This document shows, one piece after another, positions 1 through 15,672 of a stretch of 15,672 nucleotides of DNA. The stretch lies in the IMG/VR virus record IMGVR_UViG_2582580934_000010, one strand, 5' to 3'. This DNA comes from a virus. Lineage: Duplodnaviria > Heunggongvirae > Uroviricota > Caudoviricetes. The notes under the pieces were generated by a model. That model was not told where the DNA came from, did no database searches, and was given only the letters and a program-made list of their open reading frames with translations. The number at the start of each line of letters is the position of its first letter. The first letter of the stretch is position 1. Position numbers and translations under genes: made by a program.

Positions 1-22
1 TTTCAAAATATTCCGCTATTTG

Positions 23-54
23 CTCCCAATGCAAAACATATATTGCATTGGGAG
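23..54 (+). terminator. Perfect 12-bp-stem hairpin (CTCCCAATGCAA / TTGCATTGGGAG, 8-nt loop) followed by a T-rich run; candidate rho-independent terminator for a gene left of the window
   Basis: Inverted repeat read directly from the sequence; T-rich tract (CATATTTTTGTT) lies about 8 nt downstream. Confidence 0.3.
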
Positions 55-183
55 CATATTCATATTTTTGTTATTATTGTATGAAATCGTCTCATGTACA
101 CGGTCCTTTTTTCGCCGAAAACTGATATTACTTTAATCAAAAGTTGACGTGCCAGATTCGAAGTAAATTTATAAAATATCAAA

Positions 184-489
184 TCAATATACATTTTGCA
201 CCTTCGAGATAGTAATAACTGTTACTGTAACATGAGTTACAAACAGCTTCATACCCAGAGCTACTGATGTATCAACTCGATTCAACAATACCCGATATTT
301 ATTCCATGCCTCCAGCAACGATCTTTCTTCCTCCGTTGCGATTTCCAGATCTACAGCATCCTGCAGTGGCGCAATATACTCACTGAATTCCTGGATGTAG
401 AACTGTGTGGTGACGGTCTTCCAGCCATTCGGCTCCTGTTGTATCGAAGCATACCAGGCTATTTCAATATCGCTATGCTGCGGCAGCAT
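184..489 (-). pseudogene. tfaX: Tail fibre assembly protein remnant (tfaX-like); only the central ~40 aa match the Tfa C-terminal domain
   Basis: Residues [38 protein letters not shown] match the lambda Tfa C-terminal region and the paralogue at 1269..1691; the flanking N- and C-terminal residues are unrelated. ATG start at 487-489. Confidence 0.6.
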
Positions 490-545
490 TTAACCCCTTG
501 TAATTCATCGCCATAATTGATTTAATTCACAAATAAAACTATAAC

Positions 546-1214
546 ATGGTGAAATTAATGAAAAAAAACACAGATGATGGGGCTAAAATTTACACACCAC
601 TTACCCTAAAGCTTTATGACTGGTGGGTTTTGGGAGTATCAAATCGGCTTGCATGGGGATGTCCTACAAAGGAACACCTTCTTCCACACTTTCTGGAACA
701 TTTAGGTAACAACCATCTGGATATTGGTGTTGGAACTGGGTTTTACCTTACTCACGTACCTGAGAGTAGTCTGATATCTTTAATGGATTTGAACGAAGCT
801 AGCCTGAACGCGGCATCTACAAGGGCTGGGGAATCAAAAATTAAACATAAAATTAGCCATGATGTTTTTGAACCTTATCCCGCGGCGTTACATGGTCAAT
901 TTGATTCCATTTCCATGTTTTACCTTCTTCACTGCCTGCCTGGAAATATATCTACAAAAAGCTGTGTAATACGCAATGCGGCGCAGGCCTTAACTGACGA
1001 TGGAACTCTATACGGAGCCACAATTCTTGGCGATGGAGTTGTGCACAATAGCTTCGGTCAAAAACTGATGCGCATTTACAATCAGAAAGGCATCTTTTCA
1101 AACACAAAAGATTCCGAAGAAGGCTTAACACATATACTCTCAGAGCATTTCGAGAATGTTAAAACCAAGGTTCAAGGTACTGTAGTAATGTTTTCCGCTT
1201 CAGGGAAAAAATAG
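546..1214 (+). CDS. ybcY: Class I SAM-dependent methyltransferase (YbcY-like moron between the tfa remnants)
   Basis: 222-aa ORF with ATG start and a glycine-rich SAM-binding motif I (LDIGVGTGFY). Position between tfaD and tfaX matches the K-12 DLP12 arrangement as I recall it. No DNA-methyltransferase DPPY/NPPY motif seen. Confidence 0.7.
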   Translation: MVKLMKKNTDDGAKIYTPLTLKLYDWWVLGVSNRLAWGCPTKEHLLPHFLEHLGNNHLDIGVGTGFYLTHVPESSLISLMDLNEASLNAASTRAGESKIKHKISHDVFEPYPAALHGQFDSISMFYLLHCLPGNISTKSCVIRNAAQALTDDGTLYGATILGDGVVHNSFGQKLMRIYNQKGIFSNTKDSEEGLTHILSEHFENVKTKVQGTVVMFSASGKK

Positions 1215-1268
1215 CATCCAACCGCAGCACGTTCTTGCTTAAGACGTGCTGCGGCATAATCCCAATGA

Positions 1269-1691
1269 TTACTCCCTGACAGGGTTCGTAGGCCACTCAA
1301 TATCAGGTGCAGTTGATGTATCAACACGGTTCAGCAACACCCGATACTTTTTCCAGGCTTCCAGCAACAAGGTTTCTTCCTCCGTTGCGATCTCCAGATC
1401 CACAGCATCCTGAAGCGGCGCTATATGCTCACTGGCTACCTGCATCAGGCTGTTTTTTGTTTCTTCCGCCTCACGGATCCGGAACAGTTTTTCTGCTTCC
1501 GTATCCTTCACCCAAGCTGTGCCGTTCCACTTCTGAAACTCCCCTTCCGGGGATAACCAGGTGACATTTTCCGGTAATGAGCCGAGTTCAGAAATAAATA
1601 ACGCGTCGCCGGAAGCCACGTCATAAACCGTTTTACCCCGATGATCTTCAACGAGATGCCACGATGCCTCATCACTGTTGAAAACAGCCAC
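1269..1691 (-). pseudogene. tfaD: Tail fibre assembly protein Tfa, 5'-truncated (tfaD-like); the only in-frame start is a GTG that corresponds to an internal Val of lambda Tfa
   Basis: The 140 aa align with lambda Tfa from ...[18 protein letters not shown] to the C-terminus. Manual translation upstream continues in frame as [37 protein letters not shown] (Tfa-like) and then hits a stop at 1884-1886 without any ATG. Confidence 0.8.
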
Positions 1692-1896
1692 AAAGCCAGC
1701 AGGAATATCTGGTGGTGCAATATCGGTACTGTTTGCTGGCAGACCTGTATGAGGCGGAATATATGCATCACCTTCACCAATAAATTCATTAGTTCCGGCC
1801 AGGCACCAATATTTTTCGTAAAGGTGTCTTTGCCAGGGATATCCGCACCGTTCTGATCTTTCTGCAGACGTTTCTCGGCATTGTCATAGGCTGTTT

Positions 1897-4355
<2,459 letters not shown>

Positions 4356-4381
<26 letters not shown>

Positions 4382-4901
4382 TCAGCAACCCCGGTATCAG
4401 TTCATCCAGCGCGGCTGCTTTGTTCATGGCTTTGATGATATCCCGTTTCAGGAAATCAACATGTCGGTTTTCCAGTTCCGGAAAACGCCGCTGCACCGAC
4501 AGGGGGATCCCGTCGAGAATACTGGCAATTTCACCTGCGATCCGCGACAGCACGAAAGTACAGAATGCGGTTTCCACCACTTCAGCGGAGTCTCTGGCAT
4601 TTTTCAGCTCCTGTGCGTCGGCCTGCGCACGCGTAAGTCGATGGCGTTCGTACTCAATAGTCCCTGGCTGGAGATCTGTCTCGCTGGCCTGTCGCAGTTC
4701 TTCAACCTCCCGGCGCAGCTTTTCGTTCTCAATTTCAGCATCCCTTTCGGCATACCATTTTATGACGGCGGCAGAGTCATAAAGCACCTCATTACCCTTC
4801 CCACCGCCTCGCAGAACGGGCATTCCCTGCTCCTGCCAGTTCTGAATGGTACGGATACTCGCGCCGAAAATTTCAGCCAGCTGCTTTTTGTTGACTTCCA
4901 T
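4356..4901 (-). CDS. nohD: Terminase small subunit Nu1
   Basis: 181 aa MEVNKKQLAEIFGASIRTIQNWQEQGMPVLRGGGKGNEVLYD..., lambda Nu1-like with the N-terminal winged-HTH that binds cosB. Confidence 0.95.
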
Positions 4902-5090
4902 TGTTCATTCCACGGACAAAAACAGAGAAAGGAAACGACAGTGGCCAAAAAGCCCGTTTTCAGCACCTGTCGTTTCCTTTCTTTTCAGAGGGTATTTTAA
5001 ATAAAAACATTAAGTTATGACGAAGAAGAACGGAAACGCCTTAAACCGGAAAATTTTCATAAATAGCGAAAACCCGCGAGGTCGCCGCCC
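4902..5090 (-). promoter_or_regulatory. cos: cos site: cosB (Nu1/IHF-binding region) at 4902-5078 and cosN 12-nt cohesive-end sequence at 5079-5090
   Basis: Plus strand 5079-5090 is AGGTCGCCGCCC, the reverse complement of the lambda cohesive end GGGCGGCGACCT. The reverse complement of 4902-5090 reads like the lambda left end (GGGCGGCGACCTCGCGGGTTTTCGCTATTTATGAAAATTTTCCGG...), ending at the Nu1 ATG. Confidence 0.85.
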
Positions 5091-5289
5091 CGTAACCTGT
5101 CGGATCGCCGGAAAGGACCCGCAAAATGATAATAATTATCATCTACATGTCACAACGTGCATCTACGCCATCAAACCACGTCAAATAATCAATTATGACG
5201 CAGGTATCGTATTAATTGATCCGCATCAACTTAACGTAAAAACAACTTCAGACAATACAAATCAGCGACACTGAATACGGGGCAACCTC

Positions 5290-5484
5290 ATGTCAACGAA
5301 GAACAGAACCCGCAGAACAACAACCCGCAACATCCGCTTTCCTAACCAAATGATTGAACAAATTAACATCGCTCTTGATCAAAAAGGGTCCGGGAATTTC
5401 TCAGCCTGGGTCATTGAAGCCTGCCGTCGGAGGCTAACGTCAGAAAAGAGAGCATATACATCAATTAAAAGTGATGAAGAATGA
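5290..5484 (+). CDS. ylcI: Small ribbon-helix-helix-like protein (YlcI-like, DUF3950)
   Basis: 64 aa with ATG start; motif IRFPNQMIEQINIALDQKGSGNFSAWVIEACRRRL resembles RHH (CopG/Arc-type) DNA-binding folds; located between cos and bor as in DLP12. Confidence 0.55.
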   Translation: MSTKNRTRRTTTRNIRFPNQMIEQINIALDQKGSGNFSAWVIEACRRRLTSEKRAYTSIKSDEE

Positions 5485-5648
5485 ACATCCCGCGTTCTTC
5501 CCTCCGAACAGGACGATATTGTAAATTCACTTAATTACGAGGGCATTGCAGTAATTGAGTTGCAGTTTTACCACTTTCCTGACAGTGACAGACTGCGTGT
5601 TGGCTCTGTCACAGGTTAAGTAGTTTGAATGATTAGCAGTTATGGTGA

Positions 5649-5855
5649 TCAGTCAACCACCAGGGAATAATCCTTCATATTATTATCGTGCTTCACCAAC
5701 GCTGCCTCAATTGCCCTGAATGCTTCCAGAGACACCTTATGTTCTATACATGCAATTACAACATCAGGGTAACTCATAGAAATGGTGCTATTAAGCATAT
5801 TTTTTACACGAATCAGATCCACGGAGGGATCATCAGCAGATTGTTCTTTATTCAT
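5649..5855 (-). CDS. ybcW: Uncharacterised 68-aa protein (YbcW-like)
   Basis: ATG start preceded by a GGAG Shine-Dalgarno; length and position match DLP12 ybcW as recalled; convergent with ylcI. Confidence 0.5.
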
Positions 5856-6140
5856 TTTGTCGCTCCATGCGCTTGCTCTTCATCTAGCGGTTAAAATATT
5901 ACTTCAAATCTTTCTGTATGAAGATTTGAGCACGTTGGCCTTACATACATCTGTCGGTTGTATTTCCCTCCAGAATGCCAGCAGGACCGCACTTTGTTAC
6001 ACAACCAATACTATTAATTGAAAACATTCCTAATATTTGACATAAATCATCAACAAAACACAAAGAGGTCAGACCAGATTGAAACGATAAAAACGATAAT
6101 GCAAACTACGCGCCCTCGTATCACATGGAAGGTTTTACCA

Positions 6141-6551
6141 ATGGCTCAGGTTGCCATTTTTAAAGAAATATTCGATCAAGTGCGAAAAGATTTAAACTGT
6201 GAATTGTTTTATTCTGAACTAAAACGTCACAATGTCTCACATTATATTTACTATCTAGCCACAGATAATATTCACATTGTGTTAGAAAACGATAACACTG
6301 TGTTAATAAAAGGACTTAAAAAGGTTGTAAATGTTAAATTCTCAAGAAATACGCATCTTATAGAAACGTCCTTTGATAGGTTGAAATCAAGAGAAATCAC
6401 ATTTCAGCAATACAGGGAAAATCTTGCTAAAGCAGGAGTTTTCCGATGGGTTACAAATATCCACGAACATAAAAGATATTACTATACCTTTGATAATTCA
6501 TTACTATTTACTGAGAGCATTCAGAACACTACACAAATCTTTCCACGCTAA
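6141..6551 (+). CDS. ybcV: DUF1398-family protein (YbcV-like), 136 aa
   Basis: The track ORF 6018..6551 starts at a TTG. I chose the internal ATG at 6141, which has a GGAAGG Shine-Dalgarno 8 nt upstream and gives 136 aa, the length I recall for K-12 YbcV. A TTGACA -35-like hexamer lies at 6036-6041. Confidence 0.55.
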
Positions 6552-6841
6552 ATCATAACGTCCGGTTTCTTCCGTGTCAGCACCGGGGCGTTGGCATAAT
6601 GCAATACGTGTACGCGCTAAACCCTGTGTGCATCGTTTTTAATTATTCCCGGACACTCCCGCAGAGAAGTTCCCCGTCAGGGCTGTGGACATAGTTAATC
6701 CGGGAATACAATGACGATTCATCGCACCTGACATACATTAATAAATATTAACAATATGAAATTTCAACTCATTGTTTAGGGTTTGTTTAATTTTCTACAC
6801 ATACGATTCTGCGAACTTCAAAAAGCATCGGGAATAACACC

Positions 6842-7135
6842 ATGAAAAAAATGCTACTCGCTACTGCGCTGGCCCTGCTTATTACAGGATGTGCTCAACA
6901 GACGTTTACTGTTCAAAACAAACAGACAGCAGTAGCACCAAAGGAAACCATCACCCATCATTTCTTCGTTTCTGGAATTGGGCAGAAGAAAACTGTCGAT
7001 GCAGCCAAAATTTGTGGCGGCGCAGAAAATGTTGTTAAAACAGAAACCCAGCAAACATTCGTAAATGGATTGCTCGGTTTTATTACTTTAGGCATTTATA
7101 CTCCGCTGGAAGCGCGTGTGTATTGCTCAAAATAA
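6842..7135 (+). CDS. borD: Bor lipoprotein (serum-resistance outer-membrane lipoprotein), 97 aa
   Basis: MKKMLLATALALLITGCAQQ... carries a lipobox (LITGC) and is near-identical to lambda Bor as recalled; on the opposite strand to the lysis genes, as in lambda. Confidence 0.9.
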   Translation: MKKMLLATALALLITGCAQQTFTVQNKQTAVAPKETITHHFFVSGIGQKKTVDAAKICGGAENVVKTETQQTFVNGLLGFITLGIYTPLEARVYCSK

Positions 7136-7166
7136 TTGCATGAGTTGCCCATCGATATGGTCAGCT

Positions 7167-7628
7167 CTATCTGCACTGCTCATTAATATACTTCTGGGTT
7201 CCTTCCAGTTGTTTTTGCATAGTGATCAGCCTCTCTCTGAGGGTGAAATAATCCCGTTCAGCGGTGTCTGCCAGTCGGGGGGAGGCTGCATTATCCACGC
7301 CGGAGGCCGTGGTGGCTTCACGCACTGACTGACAGACTGCTTTGATGTGCAACCGACGACGACCAGCGGCAACATCATCACGCAGAGCATCATTTTCAGC
7401 TTTCGCATCAGCTAACTCCTTCGTGTATTTTGCATCGAGCGCAGCAACATCACGCTGACGCATCTGCATGTCAGTAATTGCCGCGTTCGCTAGCTTCAGT
7501 TCTCTGGCATTTTTGTCGCGCTGGGCTTTGTAGGCGATTGCGTTATCACGGTAATGATTGACCGCCCATGACAGGCTGACGATGATGCAGATAATCAGAG
7601 CGGATATAATCGCGGTTACTCTGCTCAC
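7167..7628 (-). CDS. rzpD: Spanin inner-membrane subunit Rz (i-spanin)
   Basis: Matches lambda Rz ([10 protein letters not shown]...KYINEQCR). The likely start is the GTG at 7626-7628, which corresponds to the Met of lambda Rz and overlaps the R stop; the track's upstream GTG at 7640 is the alternative. Confidence 0.8.
7226..7408 (-). CDS. rzoD: Spanin outer-membrane lipoprotein Rz1 (o-spanin), embedded in the +1 frame of Rz
   Basis: 60 aa [24 protein letters not shown]... with a lipobox (VVGC) and a proline-rich C-terminus; the embedded architecture is as in lambda Rz/Rz1. Confidence 0.8.
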
Positions 7629-8122
7629 TGTTGCCCCCACAAACAGACTTCACGCTCAATCTCACGACGAGTCATCAGGCCTTTCCATTGCTTACCGCCA
7701 GCGTATGTCCAGCGACGCAGCTGATCACATGCGCCTTTGATATCGCCCTGGTTTATTTTGCGAAGAAGCGTCGATGTTCTGAAATTGCCAGCACCCACGT
7801 TGTAAACGAATGAGTAAAGAGCGCCGCGCGTTGTTTCCGGTATATCGACTTTGATATACGGGTTAATTTGTCTGGCGACAGTGGCAAGGTCTTTATTCAA
7901 GAGTGCTTTGCATTCTGCTTTGGTATACGTTTTACCGAGCATGATGTCTTTTCCGGTGTGTCCGTGACATACAGTCCATACACCAACAATATCTTTGTAT
8001 GGTATGTAGCTGACACCTTCCAGACCATCGTTACCACTTGGGCCAGTGATTAACACTGATGCTATAGCAATTGCTCCGCCACCAATAGCAGCAGCAACGG
8101 CTTTTCGTAATGATGGAGGCAT
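7625..8122 (-). CDS. rrrD: SAR endolysin (phage 21 R / P1 Lyz type lysozyme)
   Basis: 165 aa; N-terminal Gly/Ala-rich signal-anchor-release segment ([20 protein letters not shown]) followed by an E-x8-D-x5-T catalytic triad ([16 protein letters not shown]); ATG start. Confidence 0.85.
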
Positions 8123-8337
8123 TATTCACCTCTCGCAGCCTTGCGCTTATCTTCTTTAATCTTGAAATAAAGGTTTGTCAGGTACGTCAGCAGGCCAAAT
8201 ACCAGGCTACCCAGCACACCTATTGCTGCCCACTGTGAGGGAGTGACTTTATCGAGCAGCTGTAAAAACCAGTAACCGGCACTACCTGCTGAGGTGCCAT
8301 AGGCGACTCCAGTTGTTAACTTATCCATGAATTTCAT
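8122..8337 (-). CDS. essD: Pinholin (S21-type holin/antiholin with dual start MKFM)
   Basis: The track ORF starts at a TTG at 8382. I chose the ATG at 8335-8337, which has a GAGGTGG Shine-Dalgarno 3 nt upstream and gives the 71-aa protein [14 protein letters not shown]...[11 protein letters not shown] with two transmembrane segments and a Met1/Met4 dual start. Confidence 0.85.
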
Positions 8338-8925
8338 AACCCCACCTCGCAGACAAAGCGGGTGTAAATTGAGGGAATACAACGTATCGCAAAAAAGCAG
8401 AAACGTAACTGACTCCGAGTCAGTGAATAACTCAGGTATTGAGTTATCAGCTAATATCGAGACTCAAAAAATGGAAAAACCAGCTCGACGGCGGGTTTAA
8501 GCTGTGTGACGAAGTAACCACTCTTAACAGCATAACCAATTTTTTACGTACGTAAACCACTGAATGATATTTATGAGAATGCTACCGAGTGTTCAAAACA
8601 TCACCACAAATACATAAGAAAACCTCAACAAATAACCAATAAATAATTTCCAGTGTTATTTTTAGCCGGTTTAAATTAAACAGACGAATTATAGAACCAC
8701 CATAAATAACAGCCATTAATATAAATTAGCTAATAGATTTATTTTTGTTCAAATAAGAGCCATAAATAGGTTTCGATAGAAAAAGTTCAGATAAAAATAG
8801 AGATCTACTTCACAAATTAAATGAGAAACTAAAACTTACATCTTGAAATAATCACATTGATTAGATGAATATTTATCGCGCAGTGACATCATTTTTTAAT
8901 AATAGTTCAAAAAAAAGGGCTCACG

Positions 8926-10023
8926 ATGAAAAAATTAACAGTGGCAATTTCTGCTGTAGCTGCATCAGTACTGATGGCGATGTCTGCTCAGGCAGCTGAA
9001 ATTTATAATAAAGACAGTAACAAGCTGGATCTGTACGGGAAAGTTAATGCCAAGCACTACTTTTCCTCTAACGATGCAGATGATGGTGATACTACTTATG
9101 TTCGTCTGGGCTTCAAAGGCGAAACCCAAATCAACGATCAGCTGACTGGTTTCGGTCAGTGGGAATATGAATTCAAAGGCAACCGCGCTGAATCTCAAGG
9201 TTCCTCCAAAGACAAAACCCGTCTTGCATTTGCAGGCCTGAAATTCGGTGACTACGGCTCAATCGATTACGGCCGTAACTACGGTGTAGCATACGACATC
9301 GGTGCGTGGACTGACGTTCTGCCAGAATTCGGTGGCGATACCTGGACCCAAACAGATGTGTTCATGACTGGTCGCACCACTGGTGTTGCAACCTATCGTA
9401 ACAACGACTTCTTTGGTCTGGTTGATGGTCTGAACTTTGCTGCTCAGTACCAAGGCAAAAACGATCGTAGCGATTTCGATAACTACACCGAAGGTAACGG
9501 TGATGGCTTCGGTTTCTCTGCTACCTATGAATACGAAGGATTCGGTATCGGTGCAACTTATGCGAAATCTGATCGTACCGACACTCAAGTTAATGCAGGG
9601 AAAGTTCTTCCTGAAGTATTTGCTTCCGGTAAAAATGCAGAAGTTTGGGCCGCAGGTCTGAAATATGACGCTAACAACATTTACCTGGCCACTACCTATT
9701 CTGAAACCCAGAATATGACTGTATTTGCTGATCACTTCGTTGCTAATAAAGCTCAAAACTTCGAAGCTGTTGCACAATATCAGTTCGATTTCGGTCTGCG
9801 TCCGTCCGTTGCTTACCTGCAATCTAAAGGTAAGGATCTTGGAGTATGGGGCGATCAGGACTTAGTCAAATATGTTGATGTAGGTGCAACCTATTACTTC
9901 AACAAAAATATGTCTACTTTCGTTGATTACAAAATCAACCTGCTTGACAAAAATGACTTCACTAAAGCACTCGGTGTAAGCACTGATGACATCGTTGCTG
10001 TAGGTCTGGTTTACCAGTTCTAA
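8926..10023 (+). CDS. nmpC: Outer-membrane general porin, NmpC/OmpD/OmpC family (intact, 365 aa with signal peptide)
   Basis: Signal peptide [23 protein letters not shown] followed by AEIYNKD; typical porin motifs and the C-terminal aromatic residue (...VGLVYQF); lies between Q and the lysis cassette on the opposite strand. Confidence 0.9.
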
Positions 10024-10039
10024 TCTGATTACGAAAAAG

Positions 10040-10073
10040 ATATGTTGCGGGAGGCGTTGCCTCCCCAACATAT
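10040..10073 (-). terminator. Strong hairpin (15-bp stem with one bulge, GTT loop) followed on the minus strand by CTTTTT; candidate tR'-like terminator of the late leader transcript
   Basis: ATATGTTG(C)GGGAGGC-GTT-GCCTCCC-CAACATAT read from the sequence. The U-tract follows only on the minus strand. Confidence 0.4.
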
Positions 10074-10161
10074 AAGTGGCTCCCTCAAGCCACTTCCTTT
10101 AGGAGCACAACCTTGCTTCTAACTATATAAACCTTCTGTTATATATTACCCTTTATTTTTG

Positions 10162-10190
10162 GGGGCGTTGCAACGCCCCATTTTTAATAA
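10162..10190 (+). terminator. Perfect 18-nt palindrome GGGGCGTTGCAACGCCCC followed by ATTTTTAATAA; candidate rho-independent terminator of the porin gene
   Basis: GC-rich stem plus T-tract on the plus strand, 140 nt after the porin stop codon. Confidence 0.45.
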
Positions 10191-10212
10191 CTTTCAGTAA
10201 ACAATTGGCATA

Positions 10213-10596
10213 TTAATTAGAGTTATTAACAACGATATCCATCTCTAACCGGATATCTAATGCCATTAACATCCCTTCAATTATGCCCTCAGCCTTCTGT
10301 AACCTTTTCCCGATATAACCATCAGAGCAGCAATGCTTACCTGCCAGTGACATGAATGTCATACCGACTACATAATAATCTACTAATAAATCGTGCAAAT
10401 CGCTGTTGTTCTTTTTCAGACGGGCCATGCACCCGCAAATGATCATCGCGTCATCGTCACAACATTGCGGGCGAGATTTTACTTTTGAAGGAATTAATCC
10501 CTTAAAACCGGCGGCAATGGACGACCAGGTCACATCTTCATGATTATTAGCCGCCCACGCTCCCCAACGTTCAAGAACCATCTGAATATCACGCAT
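10213..10596 (-). CDS. quuD: Late-gene antiterminator Q (phage 21/82-type, QuuD-like), 127 aa
   Basis: The track ORF starts at a TTG at 10611; the ATG at 10594-10596 gives 127 aa [22 protein letters not shown]... with Cys-rich segments ([19 protein letters not shown]). Positioned upstream of the lysis cassette on the same strand. Confidence 0.8.
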
Positions 10597-10721
10597 TAAC
10601 TTTCTCCACAAAATCAGGCCAGCACACCAATCGCCAGTGCGCGATCGATAAAACGAAATATCAGCTCCAGCTGGGAGCCATACTTCTCTTCAAATGCCAC
10701 GGTATCCACAACAGTAGTAAT

Positions 10722-11213
10722 CTACAGATTGCCGTTAAGTTTTCTGGACAACTCCTCAATGGATGGAGGCGATACGTAATCCGGATTTTTATTCATCAGA
10801 AACTTATTTTCACAGTGGAGGCACCTGCTTTTATGAAAAAGCTCATCTTCGCTAACCGGGAATGGTTGAAGTATCGATACTATCTTTTGTCCAAAACATT
10901 TTGGGCAAAGATGCATGGTTATGCTGCCACCGTTCACGATTACCTCCTTCGAGTATACAAAAGTACCCGACTCAAGTTGGTTAAGGATATAGCCTTCCGT
11001 CTGAGCCTCAAAGTTTTCGAATTCTGCAATTTTAGCTTTGAGAGAAGCATTTATTTCTTGATAAGAGCCCACCAGTTCAACGAGAGACACGCATTCGCGC
11101 TGAATAGACGCAAGCTTTGAGTTCAGCTCACCAATAGCCGCATTTACTTCAGCTTGAGTTTTTGCCTCGTTCATTAGTTTTGCAATCTGGGCTGTTTCAC
11201 GAATAGCCGTCAT
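10722..11213 (-). CDS. Hypothetical protein: N-terminal coiled-coil (~70 aa) plus C-terminal CxxC-x21-CxxC zinc-ribbon-like domain; no family recognised
   Basis: The track ORF (259 aa) begins in low-complexity sequence that reads through the upstream repeats. The plausible start is the ATG at 11211-11213 (163 aa, weak Shine-Dalgarno) or the GTG at 11235-11237 (171 aa, AAGAG 8 nt upstream). Heptad-like N-terminus (AQIAKLMNEAKTQAEVNAAIGELNSKLASIQRE...), then HLCPKCFGQKIV...SRCLHCENKF. Confidence 0.5.
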   Translation of the reverse strand: MTAIRETAQIAKLMNEAKTQAEVNAAIGELNSKLASIQRECVSLVELVGSYQEINASLKAKIAEFENFEAQTEGYILNQLESGTFVYSKEVIVNGGSITMHLCPKCFGQKIVSILQPFPVSEDELFHKSRCLHCENKFLMNKNPDYVSPPSIEELSRKLNGNL

Positions 11214-11251
11214 TGCTGCCGTTAATTCAGCGATCACATTGAATACTCTTA

Positions 11252-11297
11252 TTGTTGTTGGGGATATCCAGATTAACCGAATCCTTGTTGTTGGGGA
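11252..11297. repeat. Two direct copies of TTGTTGTTGGGGA (11252-11264 and 11285-11297), 33 bp apart, immediately upstream of the 10722..11213 gene
   Basis: Exact 13-bp match read from the sequence; on the minus strand the motif is TCCCCAACAACAA. Confidence 0.7.
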
Positions 11298-11379
11298 ATA
11301 ACCAGGTCCACCTCGCCTGATGTGGCTAAAAGCAGGCACATAACAGCTAAGTATTTTCAACCAGAGAGAATCCTTAGCG

Positions 11380-11570
11380 TTGTGGTGAATGCGGCTCAGC
11401 GCACGCGGGTTAAGGTTGAGGCTGACAGTCGACCTTCTGTGGACACCCACCCGCCTGGTGTGCAACCTTCGCCAGGCACCGGGAGGCACCCGGCACCACA
11501 ACTTTATGCTGTGTGTAGTCCTGGCGGTACCAGTTTGTACCCTTGCTTCCGGCTGGTACCGTCCTTTTTT
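11380..11570 (+). ncRNA. Candidate structured RNA or leader element: GC-rich non-coding segment with several potential stems, ending in a terminator (stem CGGTACCAG/CTGGTACCG at 11525-11561 plus CTTTTTT at 11564-11570)
   Basis: No plausible protein in any frame (translations are Pro/Arg-rich). Local GC is clearly higher than in the flanks. Helices include GCGGG/CCCGC, CCTGG/CCAGG and CCGGG/CCCGG, with a terminal hairpin plus U-tract on the plus strand. Confidence 0.25.
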
Positions 11571-11571
11571 G

Positions 11572-11658
11572 CAAAACAGAGAAGAGCATCACCGGACGAC
11601 GGGCTCATAACCCAATCCATCCGGGCGGCTGCCACCGCAGGTGTTCTTCTCTGTTTTG
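11572..11658. repeat. 14-bp perfect inverted repeat CAAAACAGAGAAGA (11572-11585) / TCTTCTCTGTTTTG (11645-11658) bracketing a 59-bp GC-rich spacer, about 50 bp upstream of the yfdP-like start
   Basis: Read directly from the sequence. Confidence 0.7.
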
Positions 11659-11707
11659 TGGAGAAACCAACCGACCTTGCAGGGTCGATATGATGAGGAG
11701 CAGCAAA

Positions 11708-12070
11708 ATGGCTAGCGAACGCAGTACTGATGTGCAGGCATTTATCGGGGAGCTGGACGGCGGCGTATTTGAAACCAAAATCGGCGCAGTTCTCAGTGAG
11801 GTCGCTTCCGGTGTGATGAACACGAAAACCAAAGGGAAGGTCTCACTCAATCTGGAAATCGAACCGTTTGATGAGAACCGTGTGAAAATCAAACACAAAC
11901 TCTCATATGTTCGCCCAACTAACCGCGGGAAAATTTCCGAAGAAGACACCACCGAAACGCCGATGTATGTCAATCGCGGTGGTCGCCTGACTATTCTGCA
12001 GGAAGACCAGGGACAATTACTGACTCTTGCCGGTGAACCTGACGGAAAACTCCGCGCAGCAGGTCGTTAA
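11708..12070 (+). CDS. yfdP: Hypothetical protein, YfdP-like (120 aa); first gene of the int-proximal plus-strand operon
   Basis: The track ORF starts at 11543; I chose the ATG at 11708, preceded by GAGGAG with 7-nt spacing, which gives 120 aa MASERSTDVQAFIGELDGG.... Length and neighbours match the K-12 CPS-53 yfdP-Q-R-S-T series as recalled. Confidence 0.55.
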   Translation: MASERSTDVQAFIGELDGGVFETKIGAVLSEVASGVMNTKTKGKVSLNLEIEPFDENRVKIKHKLSYVRPTNRGKISEEDTTETPMYVNRGGRLTILQEDQGQLLTLAGEPDGKLRAAGR

Positions 12071-12135
12071 TATCGTTCGTAATAAACTGATTATTTATCT
12101 CATCACTGAATATCTTTATATAGTGAGGACTTATT

Positions 12136-12960
12136 ATGTCTCAGAACTTAGACGCAACCGCAATTAATCAAATCCATGCCCTTATTTCTGCTCAGGGTGT
12201 TAATGAAATTATCAGTAAGATTGGTGCCGATGCTGTGGCATTGCCTGAGAATTTCCGCATTCATGATCTGGAAAAATTTAATTTAAATCGCTTCCGTTTC
12301 CGTGGTGCGCTTTCCACTGCCAGCATCGATGACTTTACCCGTTATTCTAAAGATCTTGCAGATGAAGGCACCCGCTGCTTTATCGATGCTGATAATATGC
12401 GTGCCGTCAGTGTGCTTAACCTGGGTACTATTGATGAGCCAGGTCACGCAGATAACACTGCCACTCTCAAACTGAAAAAGACAGCACCGTTCTCTGCTCT
12501 GTTGTCTGTTAACGGCGAGCGTAACTCCCAGAAGTCACTGGCAGAATGGATCGAAGACTGGGCCGACTACCTTGTGGGCTTTGATGCTAATGGTGACGCC
12601 ATTCAAGCAACAAAAGCGGCTGCGGCAGTCCGTAAAATCACGATTGAAGCAAACCAGACCGCTGATTTTGAAGATAATGACTTCAGCGGCAAACGCTCCC
12701 TGATGGAGTCTGTCGAAGCGAAGACCAAAGACATTATGCCAGTGGCATTTGAATTTAAATGCGTTCCGTTTGAAGGTCTGAAAGAACGTCCGTTTAAATT
12801 ACGCCTCAGCATTATCACTGGCGATCGTCCTGTACTGGTTCTGCGCATTATTCAGCTGGAAGCGGTGCAGGAAGAAATGGCTAACGAATTTCGTGATCTG
12901 CTTGTTGAGAAATTCAAAGACAGCAAAGTAGAAACCTTTATTGGTACTTTCACCGCCTGA
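12136..12960 (+). CDS. yfdQ: Hypothetical protein, YfdQ-like (DUF2303), 274 aa
   Basis: ATG start with a GAGGA Shine-Dalgarno; length and context match YfdQ as recalled. Confidence 0.6.
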
Positions 12961-12972
12961 TTTCATTACTGC

Positions 12973-12999
12973 AAATGCCCCTGCGGGGGCATTTATGGA
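12973..12999 (+). terminator. Hairpin AAATGCCCC-TGCG-GGGGCATTT followed by ATTTAT; possible attenuator or terminator after the yfdQ-like gene
   Basis: GC-rich 9-bp stem 13 nt after the stop codon; the U-tract is short. Confidence 0.3.
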
Positions 13000-13087
13000 A
13001 ACGTAATTAACTCAATAATCACCGGATGGTGAGGGCTTCCTTTTACCAGAATTCAGCGCGGTGCAGTGCATATACGTGGAGAACAAA

Positions 13088-13624
13088 ATGTCATTTATTA
13101 AAACTTTTTCCGGGAAGCATTTTTATTATGACAAGATAAATAAAGACGACATCGATATTAACGATATCGCGGTTTCCCTTTCAAATATCTGTCGCTTTGC
13201 CGGTCATCTTTCGCACTTCTACAGCGTCGCCCAACATGCGGTTCTTTGCAGCCAGCTGGTGCCGCAGGAATTTGCTTTTGAAGCGTTAATGCATGATGCA
13301 ACAGAAGCGTATTGCCAGGACATTCCCGCACCACTGAAACGCCTTCTTCCTGACTATAAACGGATGGAAGAAAAAATAGACGCCGTAATCCGTGAGAAAT
13401 ACGGGTTACCCCCAGTTATGAGTACACCCGTGAAATATGCCGATCTCATCATGCTGGCAACCGAACGCCGCGATCTCGGGCTTGATGATGGCTCTTTCTG
13501 GCCTGTACTGGAAGGCATCCCGGCAACAGAGATGTTCAACGTGATTCCACTGGCACCGGGTCATGCCTACGGGATGTTTATGGAACGTTTTAACGATTTA
13601 TCGGAGTTACGCAAATGCGCATGA
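13088..13624 (+). CDS. yfdR: HD-domain phosphohydrolase, YfdR-like (5'-deoxynucleotidase family), 178 aa
   Basis: The internal ATG at 13088 has a GGAG Shine-Dalgarno and gives 178 aa. His...HD metal-binding signature (FAGHLSHF...LMHDATEAY). Confidence 0.65.
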   Translation: MSFIKTFSGKHFYYDKINKDDIDINDIAVSLSNICRFAGHLSHFYSVAQHAVLCSQLVPQEFAFEALMHDATEAYCQDIPAPLKRLLPDYKRMEEKIDAVIREKYGLPPVMSTPVKYADLIMLATERRDLGLDDGSFWPVLEGIPATEMFNVIPLAPGHAYGMFMERFNDLSELRKCA

Positions 13625-13977
13625 ATGTTTTCGAAATGGAAGGGTTTCTTCGCGGGAAATGTGTACCGCGAGATCTGAAAGTGAACGAAACAAATGCTGA
13701 GTACCTGTTACGTAAATTCGACGCGCTTGAAGCTAAATGTGCGGCACTGGAAAACAAAATAATACCAGTGTCAGCTGAACTGCCACCAGCAAATGAAAGT
13801 GTTCTGTTATTTGATGCTAATGGAGAAGGCTGGCTGATTGGCTGGCGTTCTCTCTGGTACACCTGGGGACAAAAAGAAACCGGAGAATGGCAGTGGACAT
13901 TTCAGGTCGGGGACCTTGAAAACGTCAATATCACTCACTGGGCAGTAATGCCAAAAGCACCGGAGGCTGGAGCATAA
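13615..13977 (+). CDS. yfdS: Hypothetical protein, YfdS-like (DUF551-type), 120 aa
   Basis: Overlaps the yfdR stop; Trp-rich C-terminus (GEGWLIGWRSLWYTWGQKETGEWQW); length matches YfdS. Confidence 0.55.
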   Translation: MRMNVFEMEGFLRGKCVPRDLKVNETNAEYLLRKFDALEAKCAALENKIIPVSAELPPANESVLLFDANGEGWLIGWRSLWYTWGQKETGEWQWTFQVGDLENVNITHWAVMPKAPEAGA

Positions 13978-14282
13978 TGACCACATTTACCAATAAAGAA
14001 CTGATTAAAGAAATCAAAGAACGAATCAGCAGCCTAGAGGTTCGAGACGATATTGAGCGCCGTGCTTATGAAATCGCACTCGTATCTCTGGAAGTAGAGC
14101 CAGATGAACGCGAAGCCTATGAATTATTCATGGAAAAGCGTTTCGGTGACTTAGTAGATCGTCGGAGAGTAAAAAACGGCGATAACGAATACATGGCATG
14201 GGATATGACTCTCGGTTGGATCGTCTGGCAGCAACGAGCTGGTATCCATTTTTCAACAATGACACAGCAAGAGGTGAAATAA
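13977..14282 (+). CDS. yfdT: Hypothetical protein, YfdT-like, 101 aa
   Basis: TAATG overlap with the yfdS stop; length and position match YfdT. Confidence 0.55.
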   Translation: MTTFTNKELIKEIKERISSLEVRDDIERRAYEIALVSLEVEPDEREAYELFMEKRFGDLVDRRRVKNGDNEYMAWDMTLGWIVWQQRAGIHFSTMTQQEVK

Positions 14283-14653
14283 TGGAGCCATACAGCCTCA
14301 CACTCGATGAGGCCTGTCAGTTTCTTAAGATATCCAGACCAACCGCCACCAACTGGATACGAACAGGCCGCCTACAGGCAACACGTAAAGATCCAACCAA
14401 GCCAAAATCTCCTTACCTCACAACACGGCAAGCTTGCATTGCGGCGCTTCAGTCTCCGCTGCATACTGTCCAGGTGAGCGCGGGTGATGGCATAACAGAG
14501 GAAAGAAAATGTCACTCTTCCGCAGAAATGAAATATGGTATGCCTCGTATTCGCTCCCGGGCGGGAAACGAATTAAGGAATCTCTTGGCACAAAGGACAA
14601 GCGGCAAGCTCAGGAGTTGCACGACAAGCGAAAAGCAGAACTCTGGCGAGTAG
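14282..14653 (+). CDS. Excisionase-like HTH protein (Xis/AlpA/TorI family); the 3' end overlaps the int start by 145 nt, so the functional length is uncertain
   Basis: The ATG at 14282 overlaps the yfdT stop and follows a GAGGTG Shine-Dalgarno. N-terminal HTH-like segment [30 protein letters not shown]; immediately upstream of the integrase. Confidence 0.5.
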
Positions 14654-15672
14654 AAAAGCTAGGGGATTTACCTGATGTCACTTTTGAAGAGGCCTGCCTA
14701 AGATGGCTTGAGGAAAAAGCTGATAAAAAATCTCTCGATTCAGATAAAAGCCGGATTGAGTTCTGGCTTGAACATTTTGAGGGTATAAGGCTTAAAGATA
14801 TCTCGGAGGCAAAGATTTACTCTGCTGTAAGCAGAATGCATAACAGAAAGACGAAAGAAATATGGAAACAGAAAGTTCAGGCCGCCATCAGGAAAGGTAA
14901 AGAACCGCCTGTTTATGAACCAAAGCCAGTATCAACTCAGACAAAGGCAAAGCATCTTGCCATGATAAAGGCCATTCTCCGTGCTGCAGAACGCGACTGG
15001 AAGTGGCTGGAAAAAGCGCCTGTCATCAAGATACCAGCGGTCAGAAACAAGCGAGTCAGATGGCTGGAAAAGGAGGAAGCAAAACGCCTTATTGATGAGT
15101 GCCCCGAACCACTGAAATCTGTCGTCAAGTTTGCGCTGGCAACTGGTCTGAGAAAGTCGAACATCATAAATCTGGAATGGCAACAAATCGACATGCAGCG
15201 ACGAGTTGCCTGGGTGAATCCAGAAGAGAGCAAATCAAACCGCGCCATTGGTGTGGCGCTGAACGATACCGCCTGTAAAGTGTTGCGTGATCAAATAGGC
15301 AAGCATCACAAATGGGTGTTTGTACATACCAAGGCGGCTAAGCGAGCAGATGGAACATCAACGCCTGCGGTCAGGAAGATGCGCATCGACAGCAAGACAT
15401 CATGGCTATCAGCTTGTCGTCGTGCAGGAATTGAAGATTTCCGTTTCCATGACCTCAGACACACCTGGGCAAGCTGGCTGATCCAGTCAGGCGTCCCATT
15501 ATCTGTGCTTCAGGAAATGGGCGGATGGGAGTCCATAGAAATGGTTCGTAGGTATGCTCACCTTGCGCCTAATCATTTGACAGAGCATGCAAGGAAAATA
15601 GACGACATTTTTGGTGATAATGTCCCAAATATGTCCCACTGTGGAATTATGGAGGATATAAAGAAGGCGTAA
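14509..15672 (+). CDS. intD: Tyrosine integrase, P22/DLP12 IntD-like, 387 aa
   Basis: ATG with a GAGGA Shine-Dalgarno; N-terminus [34 protein letters not shown]; C-terminal catalytic signature HDLRHTWAS...MVRRYAHL (His-x-x-Arg and the Tyr nucleophile). Confidence 0.9.

Follow-up and report, generated by a model that had tools for sequence, protein, structure and literature searches.

A probable deletion-crippled DLP12-type prophage remnant at argU of Escherichia coli that retains a Rip1-like gene and an STnc100-like structured RNA

The viral record IMGVR_UViG_2582580934_000010 is a 15,672-nt stretch of DNA (referred to here, at its full length, as the window) that is very probably a deletion-crippled remnant of a DLP12-type lambdoid prophage at argU, of the PhiR49_1 kind and with SfV/e14-type immunity. 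Sequence comparison indicates that its early region was lost in one clean deletion between two TATCC pentamers. In the scheme we propose, a DLP12-family prophage at argU would have lost cI, pL, cro, an O-like gene and nin genes in this single 6.6-kb internal event, and about 20 kb of head and tail genes would have been lost additionally, together with the distal att repeat. The combined losses would leave a remnant unable to be induced, to replicate, to be packaged or to excise, and the genes retained (a Rip1-type gene, an STnc100-like RNA, yfdPQRST, xis/int, and quuD with the porin and lysis genes) would be host-useful or neutral cargo. The object itself is an ordinary decayed prophage of an already known, annotated kind; it offers a textbook case of prophage "grounding" by deletion, with the exact breakpoint and an intact parent-like phage both in hand.

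The whole window is found as chromosomal DNA in several complete E. coli genomes, at 100.0% identity for positions 1-10023 and 99.9% for 10024-15672. In strain 13TMH22, intD terminates at the window end, 15 nt short of the tRNA-Arg gene argU, and every matching genome has a tRNA-Arg gene at this distance past intD. The window therefore sits in a prophage at the DLP12 attachment site, and it has the IntD-type integrase abutting argU and the late-gene order of DLP12-family argU elements. In window orientation, the late genes and quuD occupy the minus strand, and yfdP-Q-R-S-T, xis and int the plus strand; a divergent early-left/late arrangement is the usual lambdoid layout. The segment 10024-15672 contains quuD, a 30-codon DUF968 stub, a 171-aa open reading frame (ORF), a 450-bp non-coding stretch, yfdP-Q-R-S-T, an excisionase ORF and intD. 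An earlier inspection of the letters alone (the sequence-only reading) had recognized yfdP-Q-R-S-T, an excisionase-like gene, an IntD-type integrase and the Q/late region, and annotation, Pfam, PHROGs and K-12 identity locate all of these where it had placed them.

Whole-region comparison with complete prophages and DLP12 loci, which that reading had recommended, revealed undeleted argU relatives and the junction at which the window departs from them. The better of two intact comparators, the argU prophage of E. coli 2014C-4587 (NZ_CP027342.1; locus L007), has a complete early region between the two arms. Identical WP accessions are found in the window genome and L007 for QuuD (WP_001204780.1), the porin, EssD, RrrD, RzpD, the 171-aa protein, YfdP, YfdQ, YfdR and IntD. 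By blastn, window positions 3341-10707 align with L007 1-7367 (99.4%, gap-free) and positions 10703-15672 with L007 14001-18970 (99.92%, gap-free); the two alignments share 5 nt, TATCC, at window 10703-10707. These overlapping alignments and a three-way sequence display define the junction, which reads GCCACGG-TATCC-ACAACAG in the window, GCCACGG-TATCC-GCATGCA on the Q side of L007 and ATCTGGA-TATCC-ACAACAG on its integrase side. Relative to L007, 6,638 bp are missing at this point. The Q-side arm ends within a DUF968 (ydfU-like) nin-region gene of which the last 30 codons persist (10614-10706, minus strand); this stub is a pseudogene in the Prokaryotic Genome Annotation Pipeline (PGAP) annotation, and tblastn places DUF968 amino acids 300-329 at 10706-10617 with 100% identity. 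From the 5-bp overlap, we infer that the deletion arose by microhomology-mediated illegitimate recombination. The reverse history, with the short form as the ancestor and a later insertion of the 6.6-kb segment giving rise to the long forms, is unlikely, since it is the short form whose DUF968 gene is cut short.

A second intact comparator is PhiR49_1 (PV340568.1), a complete phage genome record of 45,270 bp with E. coli ECOR13 in its host field. It matches window 10703-15672 at 99.8%, and beyond this right-arm match it carries cI, cro, ymfL, ymfM, replication protein O, yfdN, dam, a LexA-like gene and rusA, followed by a hypothetical ORF (the counterpart of the L007 KilA-N gene), a YdfU/DUF968 gene, Q, the porin and S-R-Rz. 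PhiR49_1 is colinear with the entire window save two gaps, at phage positions 4985-11776 and 20556-40791, the first of which amounts to 6,792 bp missing at the window junction.

The genes gone relative to L007 comprise 299 of the 329 DUF968 codons, kilA-N, rusA, the LexA-like gene, an N6-adenine methyltransferase (dam), yfdN (PerC family), a 313-aa O-like helix-turn-helix (HTH) protein, DUF4222, ymfL, ymfT (cro) and ymfK (cI). Non-coding features were lost too: the cI terminator, the terminator of the 171-aa gene, and a pL-like promoter (TTGACA-16-CATAAT, matching the consensus at 11 of 12 positions in L007) that is flanked by palindromes within the deleted interval.

Searches of the window ORFs agree with this inventory. 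Pfam, PHROGs, NCBIfam and PADLOC gave no repressor, Cro, N, O or P domain in the annotated ORFs, nor in ten extra antisense or overlapping ORFs of at least 60 aa. HTH/S24 and Cro matches were absent from every window ORF, and YmfK and YmfT found no counterpart by tblastn. Neither an O-type initiator nor a P-type helicase loader was matched in any library, and the O-like and YfdN proteins of L007 had no tblastn match in the window. When 11 proteins from the L007 interval were compared with the window by tblastn, nothing was recovered beyond the last 30 aa of DUF968. The claim that cI, cro, N, O and P homologues are missing is thus upheld, and the sensitive profile searches that could have exposed a divergent repressor or replication protein among the ORFs found none.

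The proposal that the regulatory and replication modules had been deleted needs one amendment, which concerns N. No N-family protein was matched in Pfam or PHROGs, and the YfdP N terminus is not arginine-rich. An N gene is annotated in none of the intact relatives PhiR49_1, SfV and ST64B, and in L007 the interval from cI to the rip1-like gene is free of annotated genes. Lack of N is therefore a trait of the phage group and not an effect of the deletion; the other modules went with the 6,638-bp segment. As a separate observation, adjacent matches to the C4 antisense RNA (RF01695) and isrK (RF01394) occur in the rightward (pR) early operon of SfV and ST64B (L003 3226-3414, L010 909-1097). Neither RNA was found in the DLP12-type relative L007, including the interval that corresponds to the deletion, so they are not among the losses.

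The window was initially described as a mosaic in which a CPS-53-like block is joined to a DLP12-like late region. If the joint were the product of recombination between two such prophages, the distribution of the blocks in K-12 would be explained, because there they lie in separate elements, CPS-53 at argW and DLP12 at argU. However, PhiR49_1, the 2014C-4587 prophage and approximately 170 other genomes hold both arms in one argU element with a full early region between them, both junction flanks match the single element L007 at 99.4-99.9%, and homology at the joint is just 5 bp. Such an exchange is very improbable: the combination is native to the phage lineage. "Mosaic" holds relative to K-12, and as a general label it is an artefact of using K-12 as the reference, since the same blocks are contiguous in PhiR49_1 and the approximately 170 other E. 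coli genomes.

It had also been suggested that the non-coding elements and the protein at 10.7-11.7 kb might provide regulation. A functional minimal module of this kind, with the 171-aa protein and the RNA in place of cI, cro and N, would fit the location of both where immunity genes would be and the conservation and structure of the RNA. Against it, the 171-aa protein is a homologue of the defence pore Rip1 (profile E value 9.9e-20; top-probability fold match to 9oox), both components stand beside canonical cI/cro in intact relatives, and the DUF968 gene is truncated at the junction. Because they coexist with cI and cro, the protein and the RNA are no substitute for immunity, and the suggestion is even less probable than recombination between prophages. 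Nothing specific favours an assembly or sequencing artefact, which can be dismissed almost entirely: 12 complete genomes assembled independently of each other share the 201-bp junction segment without a difference, and the IMG/VR contig L038 carries it too.

Several points weigh against the deletion-remnant interpretation. The ancestor is reconstructed from present-day relatives, and the Q-side flank is 99.4%, not 100%, identical to L007, so the true parent was slightly different. The loss of att was seen in a near-identical genome (100.0%/99.9% over the window halves), because the window has no sequence past the intD stop codon. Colinearity, the junction, gene content, Rip1 homology, RNA structure and att loss were observed directly; non-inducibility and lack of expression are what we infer from them.

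Damage extends beyond the early region. Compared with PhiR49_1, the window lacks phage 20556-40791, about 20 kb in which the head, tail and tail-fibre genes lie along with the greater part of the portal gene. This second large deletion is visible at approximately 1389-1946 and 1947-2260, where a 5' portal fragment is joined to tail and tail-fibre remnants that PGAP annotates as partial portal and tail genes. Both K-12 DLP12 and PhiR49_1 end, on the far side, in a 47-bp att repeat derived from argU, of which no second copy was present in 30 kb around the locus in strain 13TMH22. The description of the window as a locked-in cryptic element is accordingly a fair one: Int and Xis are intact, and a single att site is left for them to act on in that strain.

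Of 5,426 complete E. coli genomes, 12 contain the whole of a 201-bp probe that spans the junction; every other match ended at the junction. Approximately 172 genomes have the right (int-proximal) arm without the junction. The junction-bearing genomes came from pig, human, panda, chicken and wastewater sources, and contig L038 carries the junction too, with equal spacing from Q to the RNA. Strain EC261 (L006) shows another, smaller deletion, running from just past cro into rusA, in which cro and cI are kept and rusA is truncated; it also has an IS100 insertion between yfdQ and yfdR, and its altered stretches are L006 3905-5045 and 7701-9502. Insertion sequence (IS) elements of the IS1 or IS3 type interrupt this locus in other strains. 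The EC261 deletion and the IS insertions indicate that decay here is ongoing and independent between lineages, which fits a published account (PMC6379469) that ranks DLP12 first in prevalence among the "grounded" prophages of E. coli.

The gene directly beyond the junction (10722-11237, minus strand) encodes the 171-aa protein WP_000559922.1. The mechanical ORF is 259 aa long, and its extra N-terminal extension looks non-coding. The protein belongs to phrog_1244 and to an Enterobacterales-wide family of unnamed proteins of 150-175 aa with no Pfam domain, and it had no match in PADLOC or NCBIfam. An AlphaFold2 model built from 30 homologues (mean predicted local distance difference test score 89.6) has two long N-terminal helices followed by a beta domain that contains two invariant CxxC motifs. 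Foldseek against the PDB returned a sole significant entry, 9oox chains L and M ("phage HK446 Rip1 in complex with T6 small terminase"; E 6e-7 to 1e-6, probability 1.00, 28% identity, target-normalized template modelling score 0.72). A profile of the 30 homologues searched against PDB sequences also found 9oox_L Rip1 (E 9.9e-20), aligning positions 5-152 with residues 15-160. The identity was reached solely by structure prediction followed by PDB search. These matches identify the protein as a homologue of Rip1 (ring interacting pore 1) and a candidate defence "moron," not a regulator.

Rip1 is described in PMC13434031 as a single-protein, prophage-encoded abortive infection system that assembles on the portal or small-terminase rings of an infecting phage and leads to a membrane pore. 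HK446 Rip1 (9oox; Patel et al., 2026, summarized in PMC13434031) and the window protein are alike in length (164 versus 171 aa), in the long N-terminal helices and in the C-terminal beta domain; they also share the CxxC...CxxC motifs and a prophage location. Gene placement differs, as the gene here lies between pL and the early-left operon, whereas the Pseudomonas Rip1 example given in PMC13434031 is located between terminase genes. WP_000559922.1, an unnamed "hypothetical protein" common in E. coli prophages, thus becomes a Rip1-family defence candidate, and its retention in a dead prophage would fit selection for defence cargo.

Intact relatives have the rip1-like gene in the interval from pL to the early-left genes, oriented against pL transcription and with a terminator of its own (L007 13981-13962); that terminator falls inside the deleted interval. 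In the deleted form, quuD follows the rip1-like gene on one strand, its start 125 nt after the rip1-like stop codon, with only two weak terminator-like hairpins between. Since the terminator was removed, read-through of rip1-like transcripts into quuD is plausible, and this might give constitutive low-level expression of Q, and hence of the lysis cassette, in a domesticated prophage. In the deleted strains, neither QuuD nor the lysis proteins show any change.

Two further features of this locus were noted. A 13-nt direct repeat, TTGTTGTTGGGGA, occurs at 11252-11264 and 11285-11297, 33 nt apart and just upstream of the rip1-like start (on the opposite strand), and is adjoined by a GGATATCC palindrome; the repeat could be a regulatory site for the rip1-like gene. 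In relatives, the site between pL and the RNA element is an insertion hotspot for small genes on the strand opposite pL, with the rip1-like gene as cargo here and ORFs of approximately 77-95 and 160 aa elsewhere (L003 5800-5965; L011 ~2700-2960; IMG/VR loci).

The non-coding stretch between the rip1-like gene and yfdP contains a structured RNA. Rfam RF02076 (STnc100) matched 11349-11572 on the plus strand over the full-length model (1-206) with 40.2 bits (E 1e-6), and the gathering score is 47; by this measure the window RNA is a divergent STnc100 relative and not a member at the curated threshold. A closely related copy in locus L108 scores 47.8 bits and passes the gathering score. Homologues were collected by scanning IMG/VR for an exact 26-nt motif, which gave 120 loci with 37 distinct cores, and the loci of SfV, ST64B and phiES15 were added. 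The RNAalifold consensus of 16 diverse cores has five helices, a 9-bp closing helix P1 enclosing four others, and maps to a core at 11379-11502 (plus strand). Five of its 27 pairs show compensatory changes, the proportion of cells paired was 99.5% versus 35-51% in slid controls, and the covariation score, which draws on three or four lineages, was 0.189 versus 0.017-0.068. Helix P2 is invariant automatically, because the sequences were gathered through an exact motif. The comparative data argue that this is a real, conserved structured RNA of the early-left transcription unit of the phage group.

The core is flanked by two hairpins. P0 (11346-11378, plus strand) is present in the minimum free energy fold, and its two strands co-vary between phage lineages, as judged by eye from the window, L097, L121 and phiES15. 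On the other side, an intrinsic-terminator-like hairpin, GGCGGTACCAG...CTGGTACCGTC followed by T6 (11523-11570, plus strand; sequence and fold), lies between the core and yfdP; its loop exceeds the limit of a simple scanner. ST64B and phiES15 have a hairpin and T-run of other sequence at the same place 3' of the core, and some lineages have an ORF directly after the core instead of a terminator. In several variants a BoxA-like (A/G)TGCTCTTT occurs just 5' of the core, where it pairs with the upstream strand in P0; the window copy carries AATCCTTAG instead. As a conserved boxA/nut feature the motif was rejected on this comparison, made without a systematic nut search: it is one strand of a co-varying hairpin and is missing in the window copy.

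The genomic setting of the RNA is constant on one side and variable on the other. Among 60 non-redundant loci, 48 have an S24-type cI repressor gene, of at least five sequence types, as the nearest upstream same-strand ORF of at least 120 aa; in phiES15 the upstream repressor is a 134-aa, HTH-only protein. The cargo 3' of the RNA varies, being yfdP and yfdQ in some phages and kil and gam in phiES15. In L108, a consensus promoter (TTGACA-N18-TACATT) flanked by inverted operator copies ends approximately 10 nt before the core. A sigma-70 consensus scan of window 10600-11700 found no promoter for the RNA, yfdP or the rip1-like gene, and the natural upstream promoter of the window RNA, pL, is gone with the deletion.

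Sequences around the core were inspected as well. A segment of approximately 40 nt, CCACCTCGCCTGATGTGGCTAAAAGCAGGCACATAACA (11306-11345, plus strand), is nearly identical in the Cronobacter phage phiES15 and stays beside the RNA despite differing neighbour genes. It has no sigma-70 consensus and may be a promoter or processing signal of the RNA. A sigma-54-like GG-N10-GC noticed by eye in the conserved 45 nt upstream of the RNA was discarded because its spacing is broken by a 1-nt insertion in SfV. The yfdP 5' untranslated region (11563-11690, plus strand), 3' of the terminator, is conserved apart from the RNA core in many phages, among them mEp460, cdtI, Stx2c phages, 2H10 and part of LLS, and may be either coding or regulatory; PGAP annotates it as a "frameshifted hypothetical protein," one frame matches phrog_33599, and the annotation of phage Kati fuses it with yfdP.

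No role has been assigned to STnc100 or the related PasD, which are regarded as prophage small RNAs (sRNAs). The window RNA resembles them in its closing helix, the invariant CCGGGAGGCACCCGG hairpin, the 3' terminator and its prophage location, whereas its P2 region differs from the Rfam consensus. Canonical STnc100/PasD copies are reported from late regions, either 3' of stx2B or close to Q, and the window copy instead precedes the early-left operon. We consider it about an even chance that the RNA works in trans as an Hfq-type sRNA, in line with the proposal for PasD. A leader that acts in cis, by antitermination or attenuation, on the early-left operon of N-less SfV/ST64B/DLP12-type phages is a rather unlikely alternative. 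Favouring a leader are the position of the RNA after varied cI types, the unrelated cargo behind it, the pL spacing in L108 and the place of the terminator, which is kept in the three lineages compared (this prophage/SfV, ST64B and phiES15). If the RNA were such a leader, it would represent a third solution to early antitermination or attenuation beside N/nut and HK022 put, and the "sRNA" seen by RNA-seq would be the terminated leader. For STnc100/PasD, now an orphan sRNA family, the conserved place between repressor gene and early-left operon hints at tests of function. In either role, the RNA does not account for the missing regulators, since it coexists with cI and cro in intact phages.

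The put RNAs act in cis to cause antitermination in N-less lambdoid phages, via the beta' zinc-binding domain of RNA polymerase. Like the window RNA, those of HK022 and HK639 are structured RNAs at the start of the pL transcript in lambdoid phages without N; the window RNA is followed by a terminator. The put RNAs are approximately 70 nt with two stems, whereas the window core is 124 nt with several helices. Homology between them was tried and rejected: local alignment scores were 16 (HK639 putL) and a marginal 22 (HK022) versus a shuffle mean of 15.7 (standard deviation 2.1-2.2), and the positive reference, HK022 versus HK639 put, scored 55.

The first ORF 3' of the RNA element is yfdP (phrog_204; 11708-12070, plus strand; annotation, PHROGs and K-12 identity), and the genes that follow it are all on the same strand. 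yfdQ (DUF2303; 12136-12960) matched Pfam at 2e-92 and the PDB entry 9o7m ("YfdQ Protein") at E 1.2e-44; yfdR (13088-13624) encodes an HD-domain 5'-deoxynucleotidase (PHROG 318 at 5e-110); and a yfdS-like gene (DUF551) and yfdT occupy 13615-14282 (annotation, Pfam and PHROGs). PDB sequence searches gave no match for YfdP, YfdS or YfdT, and nothing was found for these three in PADLOC or NCBIfam. K-12 YfdR is described as binding DnaA, and yfdQRST overexpression as inhibiting initiation at oriC (PMC4776307). The yfdQRST genes are early genes that modulate the host and do not serve phage replication. Expression of the early-left genes is presumed to be poor or absent now that pL is gone. The solved YfdQ homologue 9o7m was deposited with 36 chains, which suggests that YfdQ of this type forms a large assembly; a search for a paper describing the entry found none.

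The full-length excisionase ORF (14282-14653, plus strand) begins with an N-terminal HTH_17 domain (1.2e-8) and covers positions 1-116 of the 117 in PHROG 2907 (E 1e-45). It is complete here, and K-12 xisD keeps the 3' part alone, with K-12 homology beginning at window 14414. The intact tyrosine integrase gene intD (14509-15672, plus strand; 387 aa) matched Pfam Phage_integrase at 5.5e-47. On the other side of the junction, the intact quuD gene for the late-gene antiterminator Q (10213-10596, minus strand) matched Phage_antitermQ at 8.5e-54 and is 97.9% identical to K-12 quuD. Beyond it, a porin gene at 8926-10023 (plus strand) encodes an intact 365-aa protein of the NmpC/OmpD type and has its own terminator at 10162-10179. 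A match to Rfam IS009 (RF02111; 221.6 bits) at 1312-1510 on the minus strand, in the tfa (tail-fibre-assembly) gene region, probably reflects conserved coding sequence and not a separate RNA.

Among known elements, K-12 DLP12 (argU; Lindsey et al., 1989, cited in PMC6379469) shares the integration site and is, like the window element, defective and without cI, cro, O and P. K-12 intD/xisD is 99.4% identical to window 14414-15672, and nohD-quuD is approximately 98% identical (97.8-97.9%) to window 4074-10631; the K-12 late order of quuD, nmpC-type porin, essD-rrrD-rzpD, bor, ybcV/W and nohD is kept in the window. The early regions differ. DLP12 has an xisD fragment, exoD, peaD, renD::IS3, emrE, ybcK-L-M-N, ninE, ybcO and rusA, lacks yfdPQRST, the rip1-like gene and the STnc100-like RNA, and has nmpC split by IS5, whereas the window porin gene is intact. 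Window 10632-11688 has no K-12 counterpart.

K-12 CPS-53 (KpLE1) supplies the match to the next segment, its yfdP-yfdT being 98.0% identical to window 11689-14335 over 2,647 nt. This homology does not reach upstream of the yfdP start, and the STnc100-like leader and rip1-like gene are accordingly absent from CPS-53. Its immunity region is also gone, and a remnant of the O family, yfdO, is divergent from yfdP. CPS-53 resides at argW with IntS and TorI, whereas the window element resides at argU with IntD.

PhiR49_1 and the 2014C-4587 prophage share with the window the integrase, att and the yfdT-S-R-Q-P arm (99.8-99.9%), and they have the rip1-like gene, STnc100-like RNA, Q, porin, and lysis and terminase genes arranged as in the window. 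Both differ from the window in keeping the 6.6-6.8 kb with cI, pL, cro, O, the nin genes and DUF968, and PhiR49_1 additionally has the distal att repeat and the head and tail genes (approximately 20 kb) that the window lacks.

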